NCBI GenBank assembly: GCA_963514005.1
Contig: OY740781.1
Location: 65,658,001 to 65,722,000, forward strand
Direction: 5' to 3'
Origin: Raja brachyura
Lineage: Eukaryota
Length of the DNA: 64,000 bases
Shown: positions 1 through 64,000 of the stretch, piece by piece
Layout of the letters: the number at the start of each line of letters is the position of its first letter
Position numbering within the stretch: position 1 is the first letter of the stretch
The notes under the pieces: model-generated
What the model was told of the DNA's origin: nothing
The model's input: only the letters and a program-made list of their open reading frames with translations
Database searches by the model: none
Position numbers and translations under genes: made by a program

Positions 1-547
1 CAAAGTAAACACTAAGTAATATAATATTAACTTTAATTGCACAGACACACTTGTACCTGTCCCGTCCATTGGACAACAGTACTTCATTAAACTAAATGCA
101 GTACCCCTATCTGGAGGAAATAAAGGAAATTTGTAAAGGAAAGAGGGAAGCTGTAAATATGTAAAGATCAGATAGCATATGCTGGACAGAAAATGAGTTA
201 ACTTTTCACGTCATTAACTTCTTATTTGAATTGGAAAAAGTTGGATATAACAAAGTTTTAAGATGTCAAGAAAATGAATGTAAAGTGGCTGAGAATCAGA
301 GAATTGCTGATTATCTGAAGTTGCTAAACTCCACATCCATTTAGAAGGCAATAATGATAAAATTAATGTGTCCGTTGAGATAAATTCAAAGCACAGCACC
401 ATGTGAAAGATTAAAAGCCAACATTTCTTCTGTAATGGTTATATAAGTTGCTGAGAAACAATAGGAGATATACTATAGGTATTACATAGAATTTTAAGCC
501 TATTTAGAAAATGTCGTAAAGAAGATGAACTACTGAACTCTCTAATC

Positions 548-2632: not shown

Positions 2633-2765
2633 CTCTGAAGAAGGGTCTCGACCCGAAATGTCGCCTATCTCCTTCGCTCCTTAGATGCTGCTGCACCCGC
2701 TGAGTTTCTCCAGCTTTTTGTGTAACCCTCGATTCTCCAGCATCTGCAGTTCCTTCTTTAACACT
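2633..2765 (+). mobile_element. Solo Penelope pseudo-LTR with hammerhead motif and 3' tail
   Basis: Nearly identical to the 3' end of the Penelope copy (13650-13744), extended by the tail gattctccagcatctgcagttcct. Confidence 0.85.
2635..2662 (+). ncRNA. Minimal type I hammerhead ribozyme motif (Penelope-associated)
   Basis: CUGAAGA-A-GGGUC(UC)GACCC-GAAA-UGUC. Core and stem II are intact; the ACGU palindrome is changed to AUGU. Confidence 0.6.
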
Positions 2766-49515: not shown

Positions 49516-49772
49516 CATCATTTTAATCTGTTTAGTTGCATTAAACACCGATTCTCCCAATACTTCTGCGGATTGAGTTCATGGGAGTGGAATTACTTCA
49601 CAAAAGCATTTCCCTGTACCTCGGTACACGTGACAATAATAAACTAAACGTAATTTTCTTGCTCTGGAGTTTGCTACTGACTGATTTACCCTCGATGCAT
49701 CCAAATCAGAGGGCACAGCAGCAGCAGGCAAAGAACCAAAGACCTACATAGGCCGATGGAGTAAGGTGTGGA

Positions 49773-50555
49773 GGGTTACACAAAAAGCTGGAGAAACTCA
49801 GCGGGTGCAGCAGCATCTAAGGAGTGAAGGAGATAGGCGACGTTTCGGGTCGAGACCCTTCTTCAGACTGGTCAGGGATCGGGAAACGAGAGATATAGAC
49901 GGTGATGTGGAGAGATAAAGAACAATGAATGAAAGATATGAAAAAAAGTATCGATGATAAAGGAAACAGGCCATTGTAAGCTGTTTGTAGTGTGAAAATG
50001 AGAAGCTAGTGCGACTTGGGTGGGGGAGAGATAGAGAGAGAAGGAATGCCAGGGCCCGAGGGCTGAGGGAGAGGTGGGAAGGGGAGGAGACAGCCAAGGT
50101 TAACAGAATTGAGAAAATTCAATGTTTAAGCCCAGAGGATGCAGACTCCCCAAGCGGAATATGAGATGTTGTTCCTCCAACTTGCGGTGTTACTCACTCT
50201 GGCCGTGGAGGAGGCCCAGGACCGAGAGGTTGGATACGGAATGGGAGGGGGAGTTGAAGTGCTGAGCCACTGGGAGGTCGGGTTGGTTATTGTGGACCGA
50301 GCGGAGGTGTTCGGCGAAACGATCACCCAGCCTCCGCTTGGTCTCACCGATGTAGATCAGCTGGCATCTGGAGCAACGGATGCAGTAGATGCGGTTGGGG
50401 GACGTGCAGGTGAACCTCTGTCGGACTTGGAAGGACTGCTTGGGTCCCTGAAAGGAGTGGATGGGGGAGGTGAAGGGACAAGTGTAGCATCTCTTGCGGT
50501 TGCAAGGGAAAGTGCCCAGGGAAGGGGTGGAGCGGGAGGGAATGGAAGAAGGGAA
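49773..50555 (-). mobile_element. 5'-truncated Penelope (Neptune-type) element, sister of 12967-13744
   Basis: Reverse complement of the GIY-YIG/pLTR copy. Intact hammerhead motif at 49839-49866. Possible TSD gtgtgga (49766-49772) / gtgcgga (50556-50562). Confidence 0.94.
49839..49866 (-). ncRNA. Minimal hammerhead ribozyme motif, full consensus
   Basis: Minus strand reads CUGAAGA A GGGUC UC GACCC GAA ACGU C, with palindromic ACGU and a GUC cleavage triplet. Confidence 0.7.
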
Positions 50556-50833
50556 GTGCGGATATGCACAAGGTACGCATTCAGCAAAAAATCACATTCA
50601 AAACACACGGAAGATTGCTGGGGTTCAAGACAGTCACTTGCTGATGCCTTCTCCTGCAGTGACAGATGGATCTGAATGCTAGGACACACAATGCATAATT
50701 TGGAGTTACAGGTAATGCATGCCTGACTCCTTCAAAATTGTTTCTGGCATCATTGCAACATTAGTCAGTTCCTGAGCACACAGTGATCCAATAGGTCACT
50801 GATGCACTACTTGCAAGACAACTGTTCATCACC

Positions 50834-52387: not shown

Positions 52388-52541
52388 TACGGTAAAGCAA
52401 AGTTCTAAAGATATTAAGACCAAAAGTTCTCCTTAAGGATCAGGTTGGTCATGTATATGATGAGCCACAGAAGATGAGCGAGGTCTTATATGAATACCTC
52501 TCCTTGCATTTACCATGGAGAAGGACATGAAAACTAGTGAG

Positions 52542-52764
52542 GGTTACACAAAAAGCTGGAGAAACTCAGCGGGTGCAGCAGCATCTAAGGAGTGAAGGAG
52601 AAAGGTCATGTTTCGGGTCGAGACCCTTCTTCAGACTGAAGAAGGGTCTCGACCCGAAACGTCGCCTATCTCCTTCGCTCCTTAGATGCTGCTGCATCCG
52701 CTGAGTTTCTACAGCTTTTTGTGTCACCCTCGATTCTCCAGCATCTGCAGTTCCTCCTTTAACA
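52542..52764. mobile_element. Hairpin of two inverted Penelope pLTRs with back-to-back hammerhead motifs
   Basis: Arms of about 95 bp are symmetric about 52635 (cttcttcag-a-ctgaagaag). 17-bp TSD acatgaaaactagtgag (52525-52541 / 52765-52781). Confidence 0.92.
52636..52663 (+). ncRNA. Minimal hammerhead ribozyme motif, full consensus
   Basis: CUGAAGA A GGGUC UC GACCC GAA ACGU C. Confidence 0.7.
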
Positions 52765-55339
52765 ACATGAAAACTAGTGAGTTCAGGAAAGAAAACCATA
52801 TCGTCTTTGTGAAGGAGGAGGCATTGGCAGTTATGAAACATACAACGATGGATAAATTCCTGGGGCCTGGCCAGGTGTATCAACGTCCACAATGTTGTGC
52901 AAAACAAAGGAAATGTTTGTTAGGGCCCTGGACAAAATAAATTGTAGCTTCATCTTCATTAGCAACAGGTAAGGTACAGGAAGAGTAAAGGATGGATAAT
53001 GTTTTGCCTTTACTTCAGAAGGATTGCAAGGACAAGCAAGTTAACCACATACTATAACAATGGTGGGAACATTACTTGAGGGAATTCCGAGAAAAAGGAT
53101 ATATTTGCATCTGAAAAGGCAAGGCATGATTAACGATCGTCATTGTGGCTTTGTTCATGAGAGATTACATATACAAATTTGATTGAGTTATTTGAGGAGG
53201 TGGCTAACAGCATTGATGACAGCAGAGCAATAGACATTATCTACATGGATTTTGGCAGGCCTTTGACAGGGTCCACTTGGCTGGTTTCAGAAGGTGTGAA
53301 TATATGGGATCCAGAGCAAAGGAGTAAATTGGCAGTGGAGAAGTCGCATGTTGCATGTTGGGTGTGGCTTCTCCAATTGGATACTGCAAACAGAGAAATG
53401 TCACAGAGATTGGTGCTGGATTCTTTATTGTTCATCATATATATTCAACATTTGGAAGAAGTGGCATGATTATTGAGTTTGCAGGTGATACCAAACAGCA
53501 ATACAGGTGGTCTATTGGACTGTGAAAGATATTATCAAAGGTTACAAAAGGATCTAGGTCAACTGGAAAAATGGGCAAAGGAATGGAAGAAGGAATTTAA
53601 ATCGACCAAGAGCGAATTGATGCATTTCAGGAAGATAACCGAAGCCGAGTCATACACAGTTAATGATGGTGCCCTGCGGAGTGTTATTAAAGAAAAGCAA
53701 GACTTTGAGCTGCAAGTCTATAGTATGCTGAGGGGATAGGGCATGCCTGCCTTCATCCGCAAAGGAGTTACATAACAGTTGTATAAATTGCTGGATAGGC
53801 TGCACTTTAGAGTATTGTGTGCAGTTCTGGTCACAACACAATAGGAAGAATAAGATTAAGGGTGCTGAAATTATTCACTGTAATGCTGCCTGAACTGCAA
53901 AGCTTGAGATATAATGTGAAATTGGAGAGGCAGGGATTGTTTTCCCCAAGGCCAAGAAGGCTGAAGGGCGATGTTGCAGAGGATTATAAAATTTGAAGTG
54001 TGAAAAAACCCTTATTATTTATATCTAAACCTACAGAGCTGTGCTAAAGGACAAAACTACTGTGGCATGTTAAAGTATGCACACCATTTTTAAATTTCAA
54101 AACTTTTTTTTTGCAATAATGCTACATCTGCACATGTAGTCCACAATTGACCAATACATTAAAATTAGTTTTTATCAGTTTGACACAAAAAAGAAAGCAG
54201 CATAAATTAATAAGAAATGTAGTCATGTGGAAGCCATTTTATGCTGATATGAAAGTTAACCAGCTGGAGGACTTTGTCACAGGTTTAATTCAACCTTGGC
54301 ATTCACACCTAGTCTGAAAATCTGTTAGAAACATGGGAGCACAGCCTCTCCAGCCAGTACTCTCAGATTGCGAACGATTCCTGTCACAACTCCATTTGCC
54401 TTGCTTTCATCTTTGATGCCCCATCCCAGCAAAGGTTTGAAGATTTGATCTCCCAATCTTCAGAAGGACCAAGTTCCAAATTTTCCATGATGCATTCTGT
54501 GAAAAATTGCTCCTGGATTTCCCTTCTAAATTGTCCATCTCTGATTAAGCTTATGTTCCGTTATAATCTGATGAAGGAATCCAGTGCTCAGTTCAGTTTA
54601 GTTCATCGTCATGTGAACCTAGGTACAGTGAAAAGCTTTGGTTGCGTGCTAAGCAGTCAGCAGAAAGACAATACATGATTACAATCGAGCCATGTACAGT
54701 GTATAGATACATGATAAGTGAATAACGTTTAGTGCAAGAAGCCTTTAGGTACATGCTTTATAAAATTACTTTTAAATGCTTCAATTAGCTACTTCTTCAA
54801 CCGTATAATTTAATTTAACCCTCCTAAGACTGCATTTTCAAGACCAGTTATATTCCACGTTCAGTGACCAACATTTACACAAGAAATGCAATATAAAAGT
54901 ATGAAATGGGAACATGAACAGGTCATGTAGCTTCTCAAACCCAGTTTACAGTGCACCGAGGCCACGATTGATGCCGTGCTTCTGGTCCAACTATATACCT
55001 GAACCCATTGTTCCCGTCCTGTCCAAAAATCTATCAATCTCAGCTTTGGAACTTAACACATAAGCACACATTACCCCTTGGTGTAAAGCGTTCCAAGGAA
55101 TTAGAGGATTTCAAAAAAAGCTATGAGCAAAGGTCACAGCACACCGATAGAGTATATGAATGCCATTGTGTTACATACAGCATGTTTGCTCATGAATAAA
55201 TTGTGATCCTATGGGCAATAGGAAAGGACAATCATCCTTTCTGTCTAGTTGTCGTTATTGCATTTGAACAGTGGAATTCTTTCACTGCTCACTCGCTTAC
55301 CCTCTTCAGCAATTCTGCATTTCAAACAGCTCATTCCAA

Positions 55340-60290: not shown

Positions 60291-60987
60291 TGGTCAGAAT
60301 TATACCTTCATCAGACATGTAGATTCCTCCCTCACCGTCCCATGATCCCACCAGTCCCGTTGGTAGGAATAGCTCATGATGGCATATTGTCAGGTGAGTG
60401 AAACCCTCACAGTTGTTAGCATTCACTTTCGATTCTATGATATCAAACAACATCTTCAAATGCCACATTCCATTAATTCACCTCCCTTGGTTTAATGCGT
60501 TAAGTACCTAAACTTCCTTGCCAAGATCTTAGATCCTTCATTCACATCCTCCACTTCATTGTTCCATACTTTGTACTAGTCCAGGCATCATACTCACAAA
60601 GATGATACAAGGATGTCAATTCCTTTTATATTGCCCAAACATTTTAGATGCACTAACGCATATTTCTCTGATAAGTTACAAACACCCCCACAATGATTTC
60701 CACCATCTTGTGTATTTAAGCTGCAGAAGAGTTTCCAACTAGGTTTTGGGCAACTACACCAATCCAACTCGACAACCATCAGGCTATTTCATTTCGGAGT
60801 CACGTGAGTGACTTCATGAAGAACCCGCCAGCACGCATGCGCGACATATCGTCGCTCGCATTTGCAGTCGACGGCTGGAGGTGGAGCGCGGCTCACCACC
60901 AGCCCTTCATAAGGGCCACTCAGGTAAGTATAGACAACCTTGAGCTGGTTGTTCCTTGTTTGAATATTTTTCTCTCCAAACAGGGTC

Positions 60988-62550
60988 ATGGACAAGAGGA
61001 GTAAGGGCCGCAGGACATCCGGAAGGAGTTGCCGGCCACCTATCCCGGAGCTCCCGTCTACAGCACCCGCTGGACGGGCCGGGAAAAAGGCACGTAAATC
61101 GGGGAGCCCTGTAGTCACAGGACCCGAATCACCGACACAGCTGAGCACTAGCGGGGTTCCCGCAGAGCAAGAAGTCGGTACAGCGCCGGAGCAGGTAGAC
61201 CCTGACTCCATTTCTTTATCGCCAACAGGATCGTTGGCAGAGGCGTGCAAAATGGGTTCACGTGCTGCTGCACGGCCCTTCTCCCTGAGCCCTCATGGAG
61301 GAGCCAGGGATAGAGCTCGACAACCTAGCCCTTTTCGGGCTGAGGTTTCACCAGGAGCCGCTAGATTGCGGCCTGGTGAATCAGCGAGACCCGAGTCCAC
61401 TGGTAGACCAGGAAGGGCCAGTGGAGACTCACCACCTAGTTGGACCAGGAGGAGTCACACAGGTGGAGTCTCGCCACGGTCACCACTTCCCCCGCTGGGG
61501 GCGGGTCGGGACCGTACGCCGTCTGGGTCCAGGAAAAGGACAGTCGGCAAGCCCGCGCGGATGTCGGGTCACCACGCTGCGGCGTTGGGTGCCGACTTCT
61601 CACCGCATATGTCCTCAGAGGCAGCCGGATTTAGCTCAGCCAAAAGAAGGCGTATGAGCAGATCCGCGCGGGAGTCGTTCAGTTTCGCTGAGGCGGCTGG
61701 TAGCGACTTATCGTCACGGCACCGATATTACCTCGACGAGGTACGGGCCGATGATAGGAGCCTCAGAGATTCCTTCGGGCATGAGGACTCTGACCGCCCA
61801 CTCACGCACGATGAAGGGCGCATACATCGGATGGAGAGGATTATGGAACAAATCCTGCTTAATCAAAGACAGGAGACACACAGTTCCAGGGGACTCATGA
61901 ACATATCCCCATCATCTATGGATAGCATGAGGCCAGAGGAAGAGGAAATCTTGGTACATGCTCCAGTAGCACCTGAGGTTCCCCAGGAAGAGCTCCTGGA
62001 CGTGGCAGCCAAGTTTGGATTACCCATATCATCGGGACAACCCCTCAATACCAAGCTGGCTGCTACCATAGATTTCCTCACCAACCATCAGCTACAGGAG
62101 GAGGTCCTTGCAAAGGCCATGGATAGACACAAGGCACCGGGCAATTGCAATTCGCTCAATGTGCCTATTGTCAACATGCCTATTTGGGGCAATATCAGCC
62201 CGGGCATCAGAACTCAGGAAGTAAAATTACAAAGAATCCTGAAATTACTTACATCTGGGATTACCGCGTTTGCGAGGTCGGTGGATGGAGTGGACTTGAA
62301 CACTGAACAGGAGGATGCTCTGGCGCTACTTTGCAACACGCAATATGAGATCAATGCTTTTAGGAAAAGCATCATCAAGCCTACATCGAGGACCTACATT
62401 CCGGCGCCTCCTCTATACCAACAGCCTCAACAGCCCAGGCCTTTTTTAGGGCTAGGCCCTCAACGGCCAGCATGGAAAATGCGGTTTCCACATTATCAGC
62501 GCAACCCAGCACCTCCACGTCCCACCAAACACCCCAGGGACCACCGATAA
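60988..62550 (+). CDS. DIRS ORF1 (gag-like), 520 aa
   Basis: Long open frame: low-complexity Ser/Arg/Pro N-half, then PGNCNSLNVPIVNMPIW..KLQRI..ALALL..EINAFRK..IKP, with RPFLG near the C-terminus. Confidence 0.8.
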   Translation: MDKRSKGRRTSGRSCRPPIPELPSTAPAGRAGKKARKSGSPVVTGPESPTQLSTSGVPAEQEVGTAPEQVDPDSISLSPTGSLAEACKMGSRAAARPFSLSPHGGARDRARQPSPFRAEVSPGAARLRPGESARPESTGRPGRASGDSPPSWTRRSHTGGVSPRSPLPPLGAGRDRTPSGSRKRTVGKPARMSGHHAAALGADFSPHMSSEAAGFSSAKRRRMSRSARESFSFAEAAGSDLSSRHRYYLDEVRADDRSLRDSFGHEDSDRPLTHDEGRIHRMERIMEQILLNQRQETHSSRGLMNISPSSMDSMRPEEEEILVHAPVAPEVPQEELLDVAAKFGLPISSGQPLNTKLAATIDFLTNHQLQEEVLAKAMDRHKAPGNCNSLNVPIVNMPIWGNISPGIRTQEVKLQRILKLLTSGITAFARSVDGVDLNTEQEDALALLCNTQYEINAFRKSIIKPTSRTYIPAPPLYQQPQQPRPFLGLGPQRPAWKMRFPHYQRNPAPPRPTKHPRDHR

Positions 62551-62562
62551 CCATGAAGGTAA

Positions 62563-64000
62563 GGCGGTCTGGTTTTTCATGCACTTGCATGTCTAACCTC
62601 ACATGTTGGGGGTAGACTACGGAAGTTTAAGGAGGCATGGGAAACCATCACCTCAGATGAGTTTATCTTACAAAGTATTCAGGGCTATGAGATTGAGTTC
62701 ATAAATGGCCAAATTCCTCCACCTCAGCATATGCCGAATCGCAGATTTGCACTTTCCAGGAAGGAAACAGCAGTAGGCTATGCTGAAATCTTGAGACTAC
62801 AAGAGAAAGGTGTGATAGAAAGAACCACACATGAACCAAATGAATTTGTATCTAACATATTTACAAAAACCAAAAAATATGGTGGATGTCGGGTCATTAT
62901 AGATCTAACCCATTTGAATACCTTTGTAAAATATACCCATTTCAAAATGGACACGTTCGAAACAGCCAAATCTTTGATTTCTGTGGGCTGCTTCATGGCA
63001 TGCATTGATTTAAAAGATGCATACTATTCAGTATCCATTCAGAAACACCACAGGAAGTTCTTGAAATTTACCTGGATGGATCAACTTTGGCAATACAAAG
63101 CTTTGCCCAATGGGCTTACCACAGCCCCCAGACTGTTCACTAAATTACTCAAGCCAGTGCTAGCGACACTGAGGAGGAAAAATCACATGGTCATGGCTTA
63201 TCTGGATGATATCCTAATTATTGGGCATACACTGGAATCAGCGAAATTGGCAGTTTCAGCCACTGTGGAAATATTTCAAAAAATGGGATTTATTATCCAT
63301 CCAAATAAATCAAAGTTCTGTCCTTCACAGACCATGGACTATCTGGGGTTCACGATAGATTCCAATCACATGATTGCCACCATACCAACTAACAAAGTTG
63401 GGGATGTCATTCAAGCATGCAAGAACCTGGTCTGCGCCAGTATACCATCAATCAGACAAACTGCTAAGGTAATTGGGAAAATCGTAGCAGTCTTTCCAGC
63501 TGCTCAATTCGGACCTTTACATTATCAAAATTTACAAAGATCCAAGATTTCAGCGTTAAAATTGAATGCTGGACACTTTGATAGACCTATGCAGCTGCCA
63601 CTTAAGGCAAAAATTGAGTTACAATGGTGGATTGACAATATCCATAACTCATTTAAACCCATCGTTGTGCCTCGTCCGGTGGTATACTTACAAACAGATG
63701 CAAGCTCCCATGGCTGGGGAGCTACGGACAACAACACCAGTTGTGGGGGCAGATGGGACTCACTTGAATCTACCCTTTTGTTAGCACAAGGGATAAATTA
63801 TTTGGAGATGCTTGGGGCATTCCACGGACTTAGAGCTTATTGTTCAAACTTTACTGACACTCATGTCCGTCTCCAAATAGACAACACCACTGCGGTGGCA
63901 TATCTAAATCATATGGGCGGCACCAGGTCAATTTCATGTGATGAATTGGCTAATACAATTTGGCTCTGGTGCATACAACGGAATATTTGGATTTCAGCTA
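62563..64000 (+). CDS. DIRS ORF2 reverse transcriptase-RNase H (partial, open to the window end)
   Basis: Manual translation of frame 1 from 62563 found no stop up to 64000: VGGRLRKFKEAWETIT...YLDDILII...YLGF...TDAS...WCIQRNIWISA. Missing from the ORF track, probably because it has no stop in the window. Confidence 0.9.

Follow-up and report, generated by a model that had tools for sequence, protein, structure and literature searches.

Structure of the insert and its target site

The window, by which we mean the whole stretch of 64,000 nucleotides analyzed here, contains an insert of 223 bases (52542-52764) that lies between perfect 17-nt direct repeats and is composed of two end repeats (pLTRs) of a Penelope-like element (PLE) in head-to-head orientation. 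The features of the locus are listed below, and pLTR positions are numbered from +1, the C of CTGAAG.

52430..53600, + strand: old CR1-like LINE hosting the insertion (from alignment; bounds approximate)
52525..52541, + strand: target-site duplication, left copy, 17 nt
52542..52634, - strand: tail-less arm, pLTR +1 to about +94 (from inverted-repeat comparison and end distribution)
52632..52638, no strand: junction CAG-A-CTG, the modal junction of the family (from sequence)
52636..52663, + strand: minimal type I hammerhead core, CUGAAGA, stem II, GAAAC-GUC (from sequence; motif class as described in PMC4209133)
52636..52764, + strand: tailed arm, pLTR +1 to +94 plus a 35-nt tail to +129 (from end distribution)
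52765..52781, + strand: target-site duplication, right copy, 17 nt

The inverted arms (52539-52634 and 52636-52731) are each 96 nt long, 92% complementary and 1 nt apart, and the base between them (52635) is A, where the template of the element has T. The tail of the right arm ends at 52764. The outer end of the tail-less arm coincides with the inner of two putative reverse transcriptase (RT) start sites, and that of the tailed arm with the outer one (+129). A short stem in this region (52684-52746), formed by AGAUGCUG and CAGCAUCU, encloses a hairpin plus the +94 end point and is a candidate RT start signal.

The first-pass annotation, made from the letters alone, had described a perfect 17-bp target-site duplication (TSD), two inverted arms of about 95 bp joined by one nucleotide, an extra tail of about 30 nt on one arm (35 nt here, on the right arm), the full minimal core in the right arm (CTGAAGA-stem II-GAAACGTC, at 52636-52663) and a left arm that has lost its cleavage triplet (GAAACATGA), and we recovered all of these details. 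Its view that the unit was inserted in one event is supported by the single TSD that spans the whole unit. The placement of the insertion within a CR1 also stands as far as the host repeat is concerned: a repeat copy in locus L201 aligns with the empty site across the junction (60%, E 2.5e-53), and the CR1-type RT of the window was matched by the downstream part of this site (tblastn E 1.6e-13). The family name CR1 itself is presumed from motifs. The five other hairpins that the annotation pointed out in the window do exist, but they are older relatives, 72-85% similar, with other centres and arm lengths. A clear TSD (13 nt) was found only for the one at 701-836, an older hairpin that lacks the hammerhead core and has an unrelated short palindrome at its centre.

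The hammerhead motif

Five positions of the left arm (+26, +28, +29, +33 and +42) differ from a sister copy free of mutations, three of them by G>A changes at CpG, and the right arm differs at four. The core is kept in both arms of sister hairpins. The damage to the left-arm hammerhead (+26/+28/+29) is private to the window copy and is ordinary decay, mostly at CpG.

The right arm contains CUGANGA, stem II, GAAA, the palindromic 15.2-16.2 and the cleavage triplet. According to the criteria described for minimal type I hammerheads, the motif also includes a helix I of 4-5 bp (PMC4209133). This helix is absent from the hairpin, in which the 5′ strand of stem I is missing; in the parent element, only 2 bp adjoin the core, and no 6-nt partner with at most one mismatch occurs within 300 nt upstream. 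Folding of the parent pLTR region formed no hammerhead (z 0.04). The predicted RNA fold of the hairpin (-167.3 kcal/mol, z -24) was equalled by none of 200 shuffles, and the hammerhead core is buried inside its duplex. An Rfam scan of the window matched no hammerhead family, and four weak matches of hairpins to plant and animal miRNA families, all below the gathering score, were rejected as driven by the fold. Hammerhead cleavage as the origin of the 5′ ends was likewise rejected: there is no excess at +29, where 2 of 215 copies start. On these folding models, the hairpin unit is predicted to be unable to present a folded ribozyme, and the hammerhead is a passenger here.

The parent element

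Two truncated copies in the window link the arm of the hairpin to the end of a GIY-YIG open reading frame, and a solo copy belongs to the same subfamily.

2635..2763, + strand: solo pLTR plus tail, same young subfamily, identical 5′ stop point
12928..13745, + strand: 5′-truncated parent copy with the GIY-YIG ORF end, 3′ UTR and tail-less pLTR
49771..50591, - strand: second 5′-truncated parent copy with the ORF end and tail-less pLTR

Tandem units of 3.93, 3.98 and 4.04 kb that carry the same pLTR were found in 3 of 20 stretches, which were reached through a tail read-through pattern with 571 matches; the tail represents the stretch next to the pLTR in the direction of the ORF start. The parent copies L177 and L194 match RVT_1 and GIY-YIG with E-values of 4e-4 to 4e-3, below the Pfam curated cut-offs. 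A 774-aa piece of the parent ORF, whose matches to RVT_1 (E 4e-4) and GIY-YIG (E 9e-4) are also both below the Pfam cut-offs, has the motifs DKG, YIDD, C-x4-C-x2-C and YIG. In the parent protein P0001, C-x4-C-x2-C lies at residue 641, and a CX2-5CxxC linker before the endonuclease has been described as a trait of Neptune and Nematis (PMC8557442). The parent shows these traits of an endonuclease-bearing (EN+) PLE: an RT followed by a C-terminal GIY-YIG endonuclease (by sub-cut-off matches plus motifs), the partial-tandem organization of pLTRs (tandem units) and the optional 30-40-bp tail with an inverted pLTR (a 35-nt tail, bimodal ends and pairs). Judged by these motifs, the parent is a putative EN+ PLE of about 4 kb with a Neptune-type Cys linker, a feature that does not separate Neptune from Nematis. 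The Penelope pLTR origin given in the first-pass annotation is borne out, as the arms are the pLTR of this RT/GIY-YIG element.

Several other structures were observed. At locus L046 (G000:C1:1475401-1478428), an inverted 5′ ORF piece lies beside a direct piece of the same family without overlap, which is an L1-style inversion. Thirteen loci (L116, L119-L123, L127, L128, L133, L136, L137, L144 and L145) contain short tandems in which the pLTR, the tail and 60-110 nt of the ORF start are followed by a jump back to (C)CAGTCTGAAG; these tandems suggest that the RT, on reaching the RNA 5′ end, jumps to a template in the region of the ORF start. The window also contains, at 60964-63999 on the + strand, ORFs of 528 aa and then 479 aa (RVT_1 E 4e-22) in a young-looking element that runs off the window end and that we take, from its motifs, to be DIRS-like.

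Ends, junctions and arms across the genome

In the searched genome (2.70 Gb, 1,647 contigs), whose repeats would suit a cartilaginous fish, exact matches numbered 48,810 for the pLTR core and 21,778 for the tail, and 3,372 hairpin centres with 0-12 bases between the arms were counted, a figure that covers all subfamilies with that motif. Ends were determined for 215 distinct arm copies at loci not picked by their 5′ end, some of them from older subfamilies. The 3′ ends are bimodal, with 112 at +89..100, 99 at +121..135 and 4 that read on; 107 of the 5′ starts fall at -5..+4, and 39 copies reach more than 60 nt upstream. Solo arms, tailed and tail-less alike, share the 5′ hot spot, and many have TSDs. 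Because tail-less solos have TSDs of their own, we regard +94 as a genuine start point. Most centres that contain inserts have the sequence TCAGACT-(0-2 nt)-AGTCTGA, and therefore both arms reach about the A of CCAGTCT; template-jump inserts are present at some centres.

A tail-anchored census of pairs covered 126 events in contig C1 (0.27-5.3 Mb), so that the main sample is the first 5.3 Mb of one contig. Head-to-head pairs made up 24 of the 126 events, and 4 of these 24 have the modal junction; the 40-nt rule of the census scored a few wider-spaced pairs as singles. A second junction, at +16, occurs in 240 copies. Longer inverted forms that contain ORF sequence also occur in the genome. Independent hairpins with A and T centres (L238, L260, L288 and L115) lie at nearly one site of a host repeat, a possible target hot spot, and three groups of loci (L067-L069, L022/L023/L026 and L160-L162) each trace to one insertion that was copied by segmental or tandem duplication.

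The arms of the pairs follow countable rules. In 53 pairs, 47 have one tailed and one tail-less arm, 1 is double-tailed and 5 have an unclassed arm. Exactly one tail was found in 24 of 26 hairpins chosen by centre only, in all 27 classifiable hairpins with the +16 junction and in 60 of 60 modal hairpins (30 of the 121 with centre A and 30 of the 103 with centre T). The same 60 modal hairpins all have a TSD of 14-20 nt (at most one mismatch) around the whole unit, whereas none of 870 mismatched flank pairs used as a control reach 14, and the tail-less arm ends at +90..96 in 55 of them. Among hairpins genome-wide with a mutation-free tailed arm, the centre base is A in 121 and T in 103, the template base being T. 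At the +16 junction, the complete arm is the tail-less one in 22 hairpins and the tailed one in 5, with 3 unclassed (p 0.0015); 2 of these 30 hairpins were also in the earlier census, in which the complete arm is tail-less in 12 pairs and tailed in 3. Because completeness at the +16 junction splits 22:5, neither arm merely copies the other. The bias of the centre base (54%) and that of completeness (81%) are unequal (Fisher p 0.007), and therefore one simple parameter does not account for both.

The two arms of one hairpin nevertheless resemble each other: 25 variants are common to both arms, as opposed to 4.3 ± 1.8 after shuffling (maximum 12 in 5,000 shuffles), and none of the three common subfamily variants was found on any of the 60 partners of a variant-free tailed arm (p 6e-9 under random drawing). 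These comparisons indicate that both arms of one insert probably derive from the same source, although later conversion between arms could also raise the concordance. Among the 14 hairpins that have 44C or 81C, six have the variant on a single arm, and the two arms of L233 carry different variants. At L171/L172 (G000:C4:40445055-40445216), the arms share two rare variants, one at a frequency of 0.26%, which may reflect either a minor source element or arm-to-arm conversion.

Formation of the hairpin

The insert is two head-to-head end repeats of a 4-kb PLE, and we consider it probable that it is a dead end, made anew at each insertion when the two nicked strands of the target both prime reverse transcription of the element's RNA. 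The alternative of an extreme truncation/inversion product, which the first-pass annotation had offered, is supported in substance; its wording is too weak, because the position of the preferred inner end is constant, as are those of the outer ends, and this constancy suggests a mode of integration.

A different route to the same structure, which we regard as unlikely, would be self-copying of a folded-back antisense RNA or single primed cDNA, after which the endonuclease would trim one end to leave the one-sided tail; published readings close to this one invoke self-priming, with an antisense template (PMC3846280), and resolution mediated by the EN (PMC8557442). Fold-back accounts directly for the concordance of the arms, the +16 junction is the exact outcome of a 3′ GAC folding onto an internal GTC, and the template-jump inserts show an RT prone to such moves. 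However, if the tailed cDNA were primary, the centre should always be T, and it is A in 121 and T in 103; the tailed arm should also always be complete, and the 22:5 split runs the opposite way. If the tail-less cDNA were primary, it would offer nothing from which the tail could be copied. Solo arms that lack the tail but have TSDs are also common. In the only version that remains, which is the main rival of two-strand priming, the endonuclease would trim either end of a free palindrome with two tails. That solo insertions arose independently and were then joined, or that the locus was rearranged later, with homogenization by conversion, is scarcely credible. Solo arms are very abundant and palindromes are unstable, but this origin is at odds with the single TSD around all 60 units (against none of the 870 controls) and with the strict one-tail rule, and later deletion would not predict the 22:5 polarity.

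It is also very improbable that the hairpin replicates as a non-autonomous retroposon with a ribozyme, similar to a retrozyme or a SINE, and that the Penelope protein copies it as a unit, which was the other alternative offered by the first-pass annotation. At first glance, such a family is suggested by the 40 candidates scored out of 2,520, all of which match nearly the full 223 bp at 91-100%, by the frequency of the modal junction among the 3,372 centre matches and by a C>A change that about 13 of the top 30 matches share, on the tailed arm only. This change cannot serve as a lineage mark, and we rejected it as an effect of ascertainment because the top matches were picked by the query's own mutations. 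The change occurs 126 times against 48,810 (0.26%), and among 30 loci with the change, 14 are solos, 5 are ORF-linked and 11 are inverted pairs with the change on either arm. The arms were compared by variant tables instead of trees because arms of 89 nt with 0-5 changes carry too little tree signal. In the table of 53 pairs, from which L001-030 and L146-175 were excluded as ascertained and older subfamilies, short arms and duplicates were filtered out, no variant separates tailed from tail-less arms, and 42A, 44C and 81C are found in 151 copies outside hairpins just as they are within hairpins. Each of the two centre bases is seen on three subfamily backgrounds, the junction differs between copies, and 1 of 1,770 flank pairs is alike. 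The unit is not tandem, unlike retrozymes, and the ribozyme is predicted not to fold within it. Copying of a hairpin RNA should also leave ragged left ends, and 55 of 60 lie at +90..96. The annotation had itself held that varying centres without shared diagnostic mutations would mark independent products, and this is the pattern found: centres vary, and no diagnostic mutation is exclusive to hairpins. The replicating-family reading is largely refuted, as the hairpins have neither the fixed unit nor the master-copy mutations of a SINE- or MITE-like family.

Under two-strand priming, the endonuclease would cut both target strands with a stagger of about 15 bp; one target 3′ end would prime at +129 and the other at +94, and both cDNAs would extend to a common stop, likely the RNA 5′ end at AGTCTG (within the initiator-like CCAGTCT). 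The cDNAs would then join through the near-palindrome CAG-A-CTG or through micro-homologies of 1-4 nt, where the two 3′ ends might anneal and form an A.A mismatch or one of the two cDNAs might fold back; the template could be one RNA or two RNAs from the same source locus. Each end would need its own RNA-templated start because fold-back of the tailed cDNA gives no centre A and fold-back of the tail-less cDNA gives no tail. We infer this mechanism wholly from its end products. The outer ends of the hairpins fall at the same two points at which solo copies end, and these points correspond to the RT start sites known from the anole. The PLE of the anole, as described in vitro, cleaves and extends both strands and starts reverse transcription at two sites that bound the tail, with a start site that is alike on the top and bottom strands (PMC11167929). 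Because the anole start site shows no strand difference, the one-tail rule would need an asymmetry unseen in vitro.

The common 5′ stop fits an initiator and hence may be the RNA 5′ end; it also resembles a 3′ splice site and might be a barrier to RT. An internal Inr-type promoter has been described in Drosophila Penelope (PMC2377424), and an intron of D. virilis Penelope is described as ending at helix I (PMC4209133). In the parent copy L194 (5260-5328), a pyrimidine tract, CTGAC and CAG lie just before the hammerhead core, like a branch point and a 3′ splice site. The base before AGTCTG, where a cap-derived G was sought, is C in 25, G in 8, A in 6 and T in 1 of 40 singles. The family is present in RNA contigs of other organisms, several of guessed type, and many of these contigs break at the same 5′ point; they are blind to start, strand and splicing, and none of the 15 joints listed from them, with 177 more beyond these, is a GT..AG joint.

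As a tentative extension, to which we give somewhat less than even credence, PLEs may integrate by obligate asymmetric twin priming, in which one protein dimer would use one RNA at both target nicks. The inner site would be the start for the leading RT, the tail end would be that for the trailing one, and the overlapping cDNAs would join at the RNA 5′ end. If true, this mode would account for the start of the second strand, for the inverted 5′ pLTR and for the tail on one side only across the PLE class.

Significance and comparison with known systems

As an element, the insert is ordinary, real and the product of a single event; it is the shortest form of the published PLE layout and not a new ribozyme retroposon. 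What deserves attention is its formation, since the origin of inverted ends and of the one-sided tail in the telomerase-related PLEs is an open step in print. Thousands of young copies yield countable rules (one tail per pair, a centre base near 50:50, the tail-less arm complete first and arms of the same source) that are directly testable in the existing in vitro system. In our literature search, outside of which lay subscription papers and Repbase, we found no paper that proposes twin priming for PLEs or describes the present shark-type hairpins. For annotation, such hairpins should be filed as by-products of PLEs and not as miRNA precursors, MITEs or retrozymes.

In the twin priming of L1 that Ostertag and Kazazian reportedly described in 2001, both strands prime, and an inverted piece is joined by micro-homology within one TSD. 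The L1 pieces, however, are reported not to overlap, whereas here both cDNAs cover the same 94 nt from fixed internal starts.

Similar to the non-LTR retrozymes as described (bioRxiv 10.64898/2026.07.22.740005; see also PMC7229834), the hairpin is protein-free, has a type I hammerhead motif and is related to a pLTR. Those elements are head-to-tail tandems in which each unit has an intact hammerhead; the window unit, in contrast, is a single head-to-head hairpin whose motif is sequestered and incomplete.

Poseidon_Ac, the element of the in vitro study (PMC11167929), offers the same two RT start sites bounding the tail and the same cleavage and extension of both strands, and unlike it, the present element has a Neptune-type linker. 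The hammerhead of Poseidon_Ac was reported to be dispensable for insertion, and a dimer was predicted (PMC11167929). The main text of that report draws no connection between the two sites and inverted structures, and it gives no strand difference in the start site.

The closest likeness is to the insertion units of EN+ PLEs such as Pen2a_Av, described as an inverted 5′-truncated pLTR, a direct pLTR, a 30-40-bp tail at one end and a TSD (PMC3846280; PMC8557442). The hairpin shares with them the head-to-head, tail-less inverted pLTR, a palindrome at the junction, the one-sided tail (35 nt) and the TSD around the whole unit, and it differs in having no ORF between the arms and in being the shortest form, with thousands of copies and a preferred junction. 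These units have been explained in print by antisense self-priming or by EN resolution; the present counts favour priming at both ends of the target.
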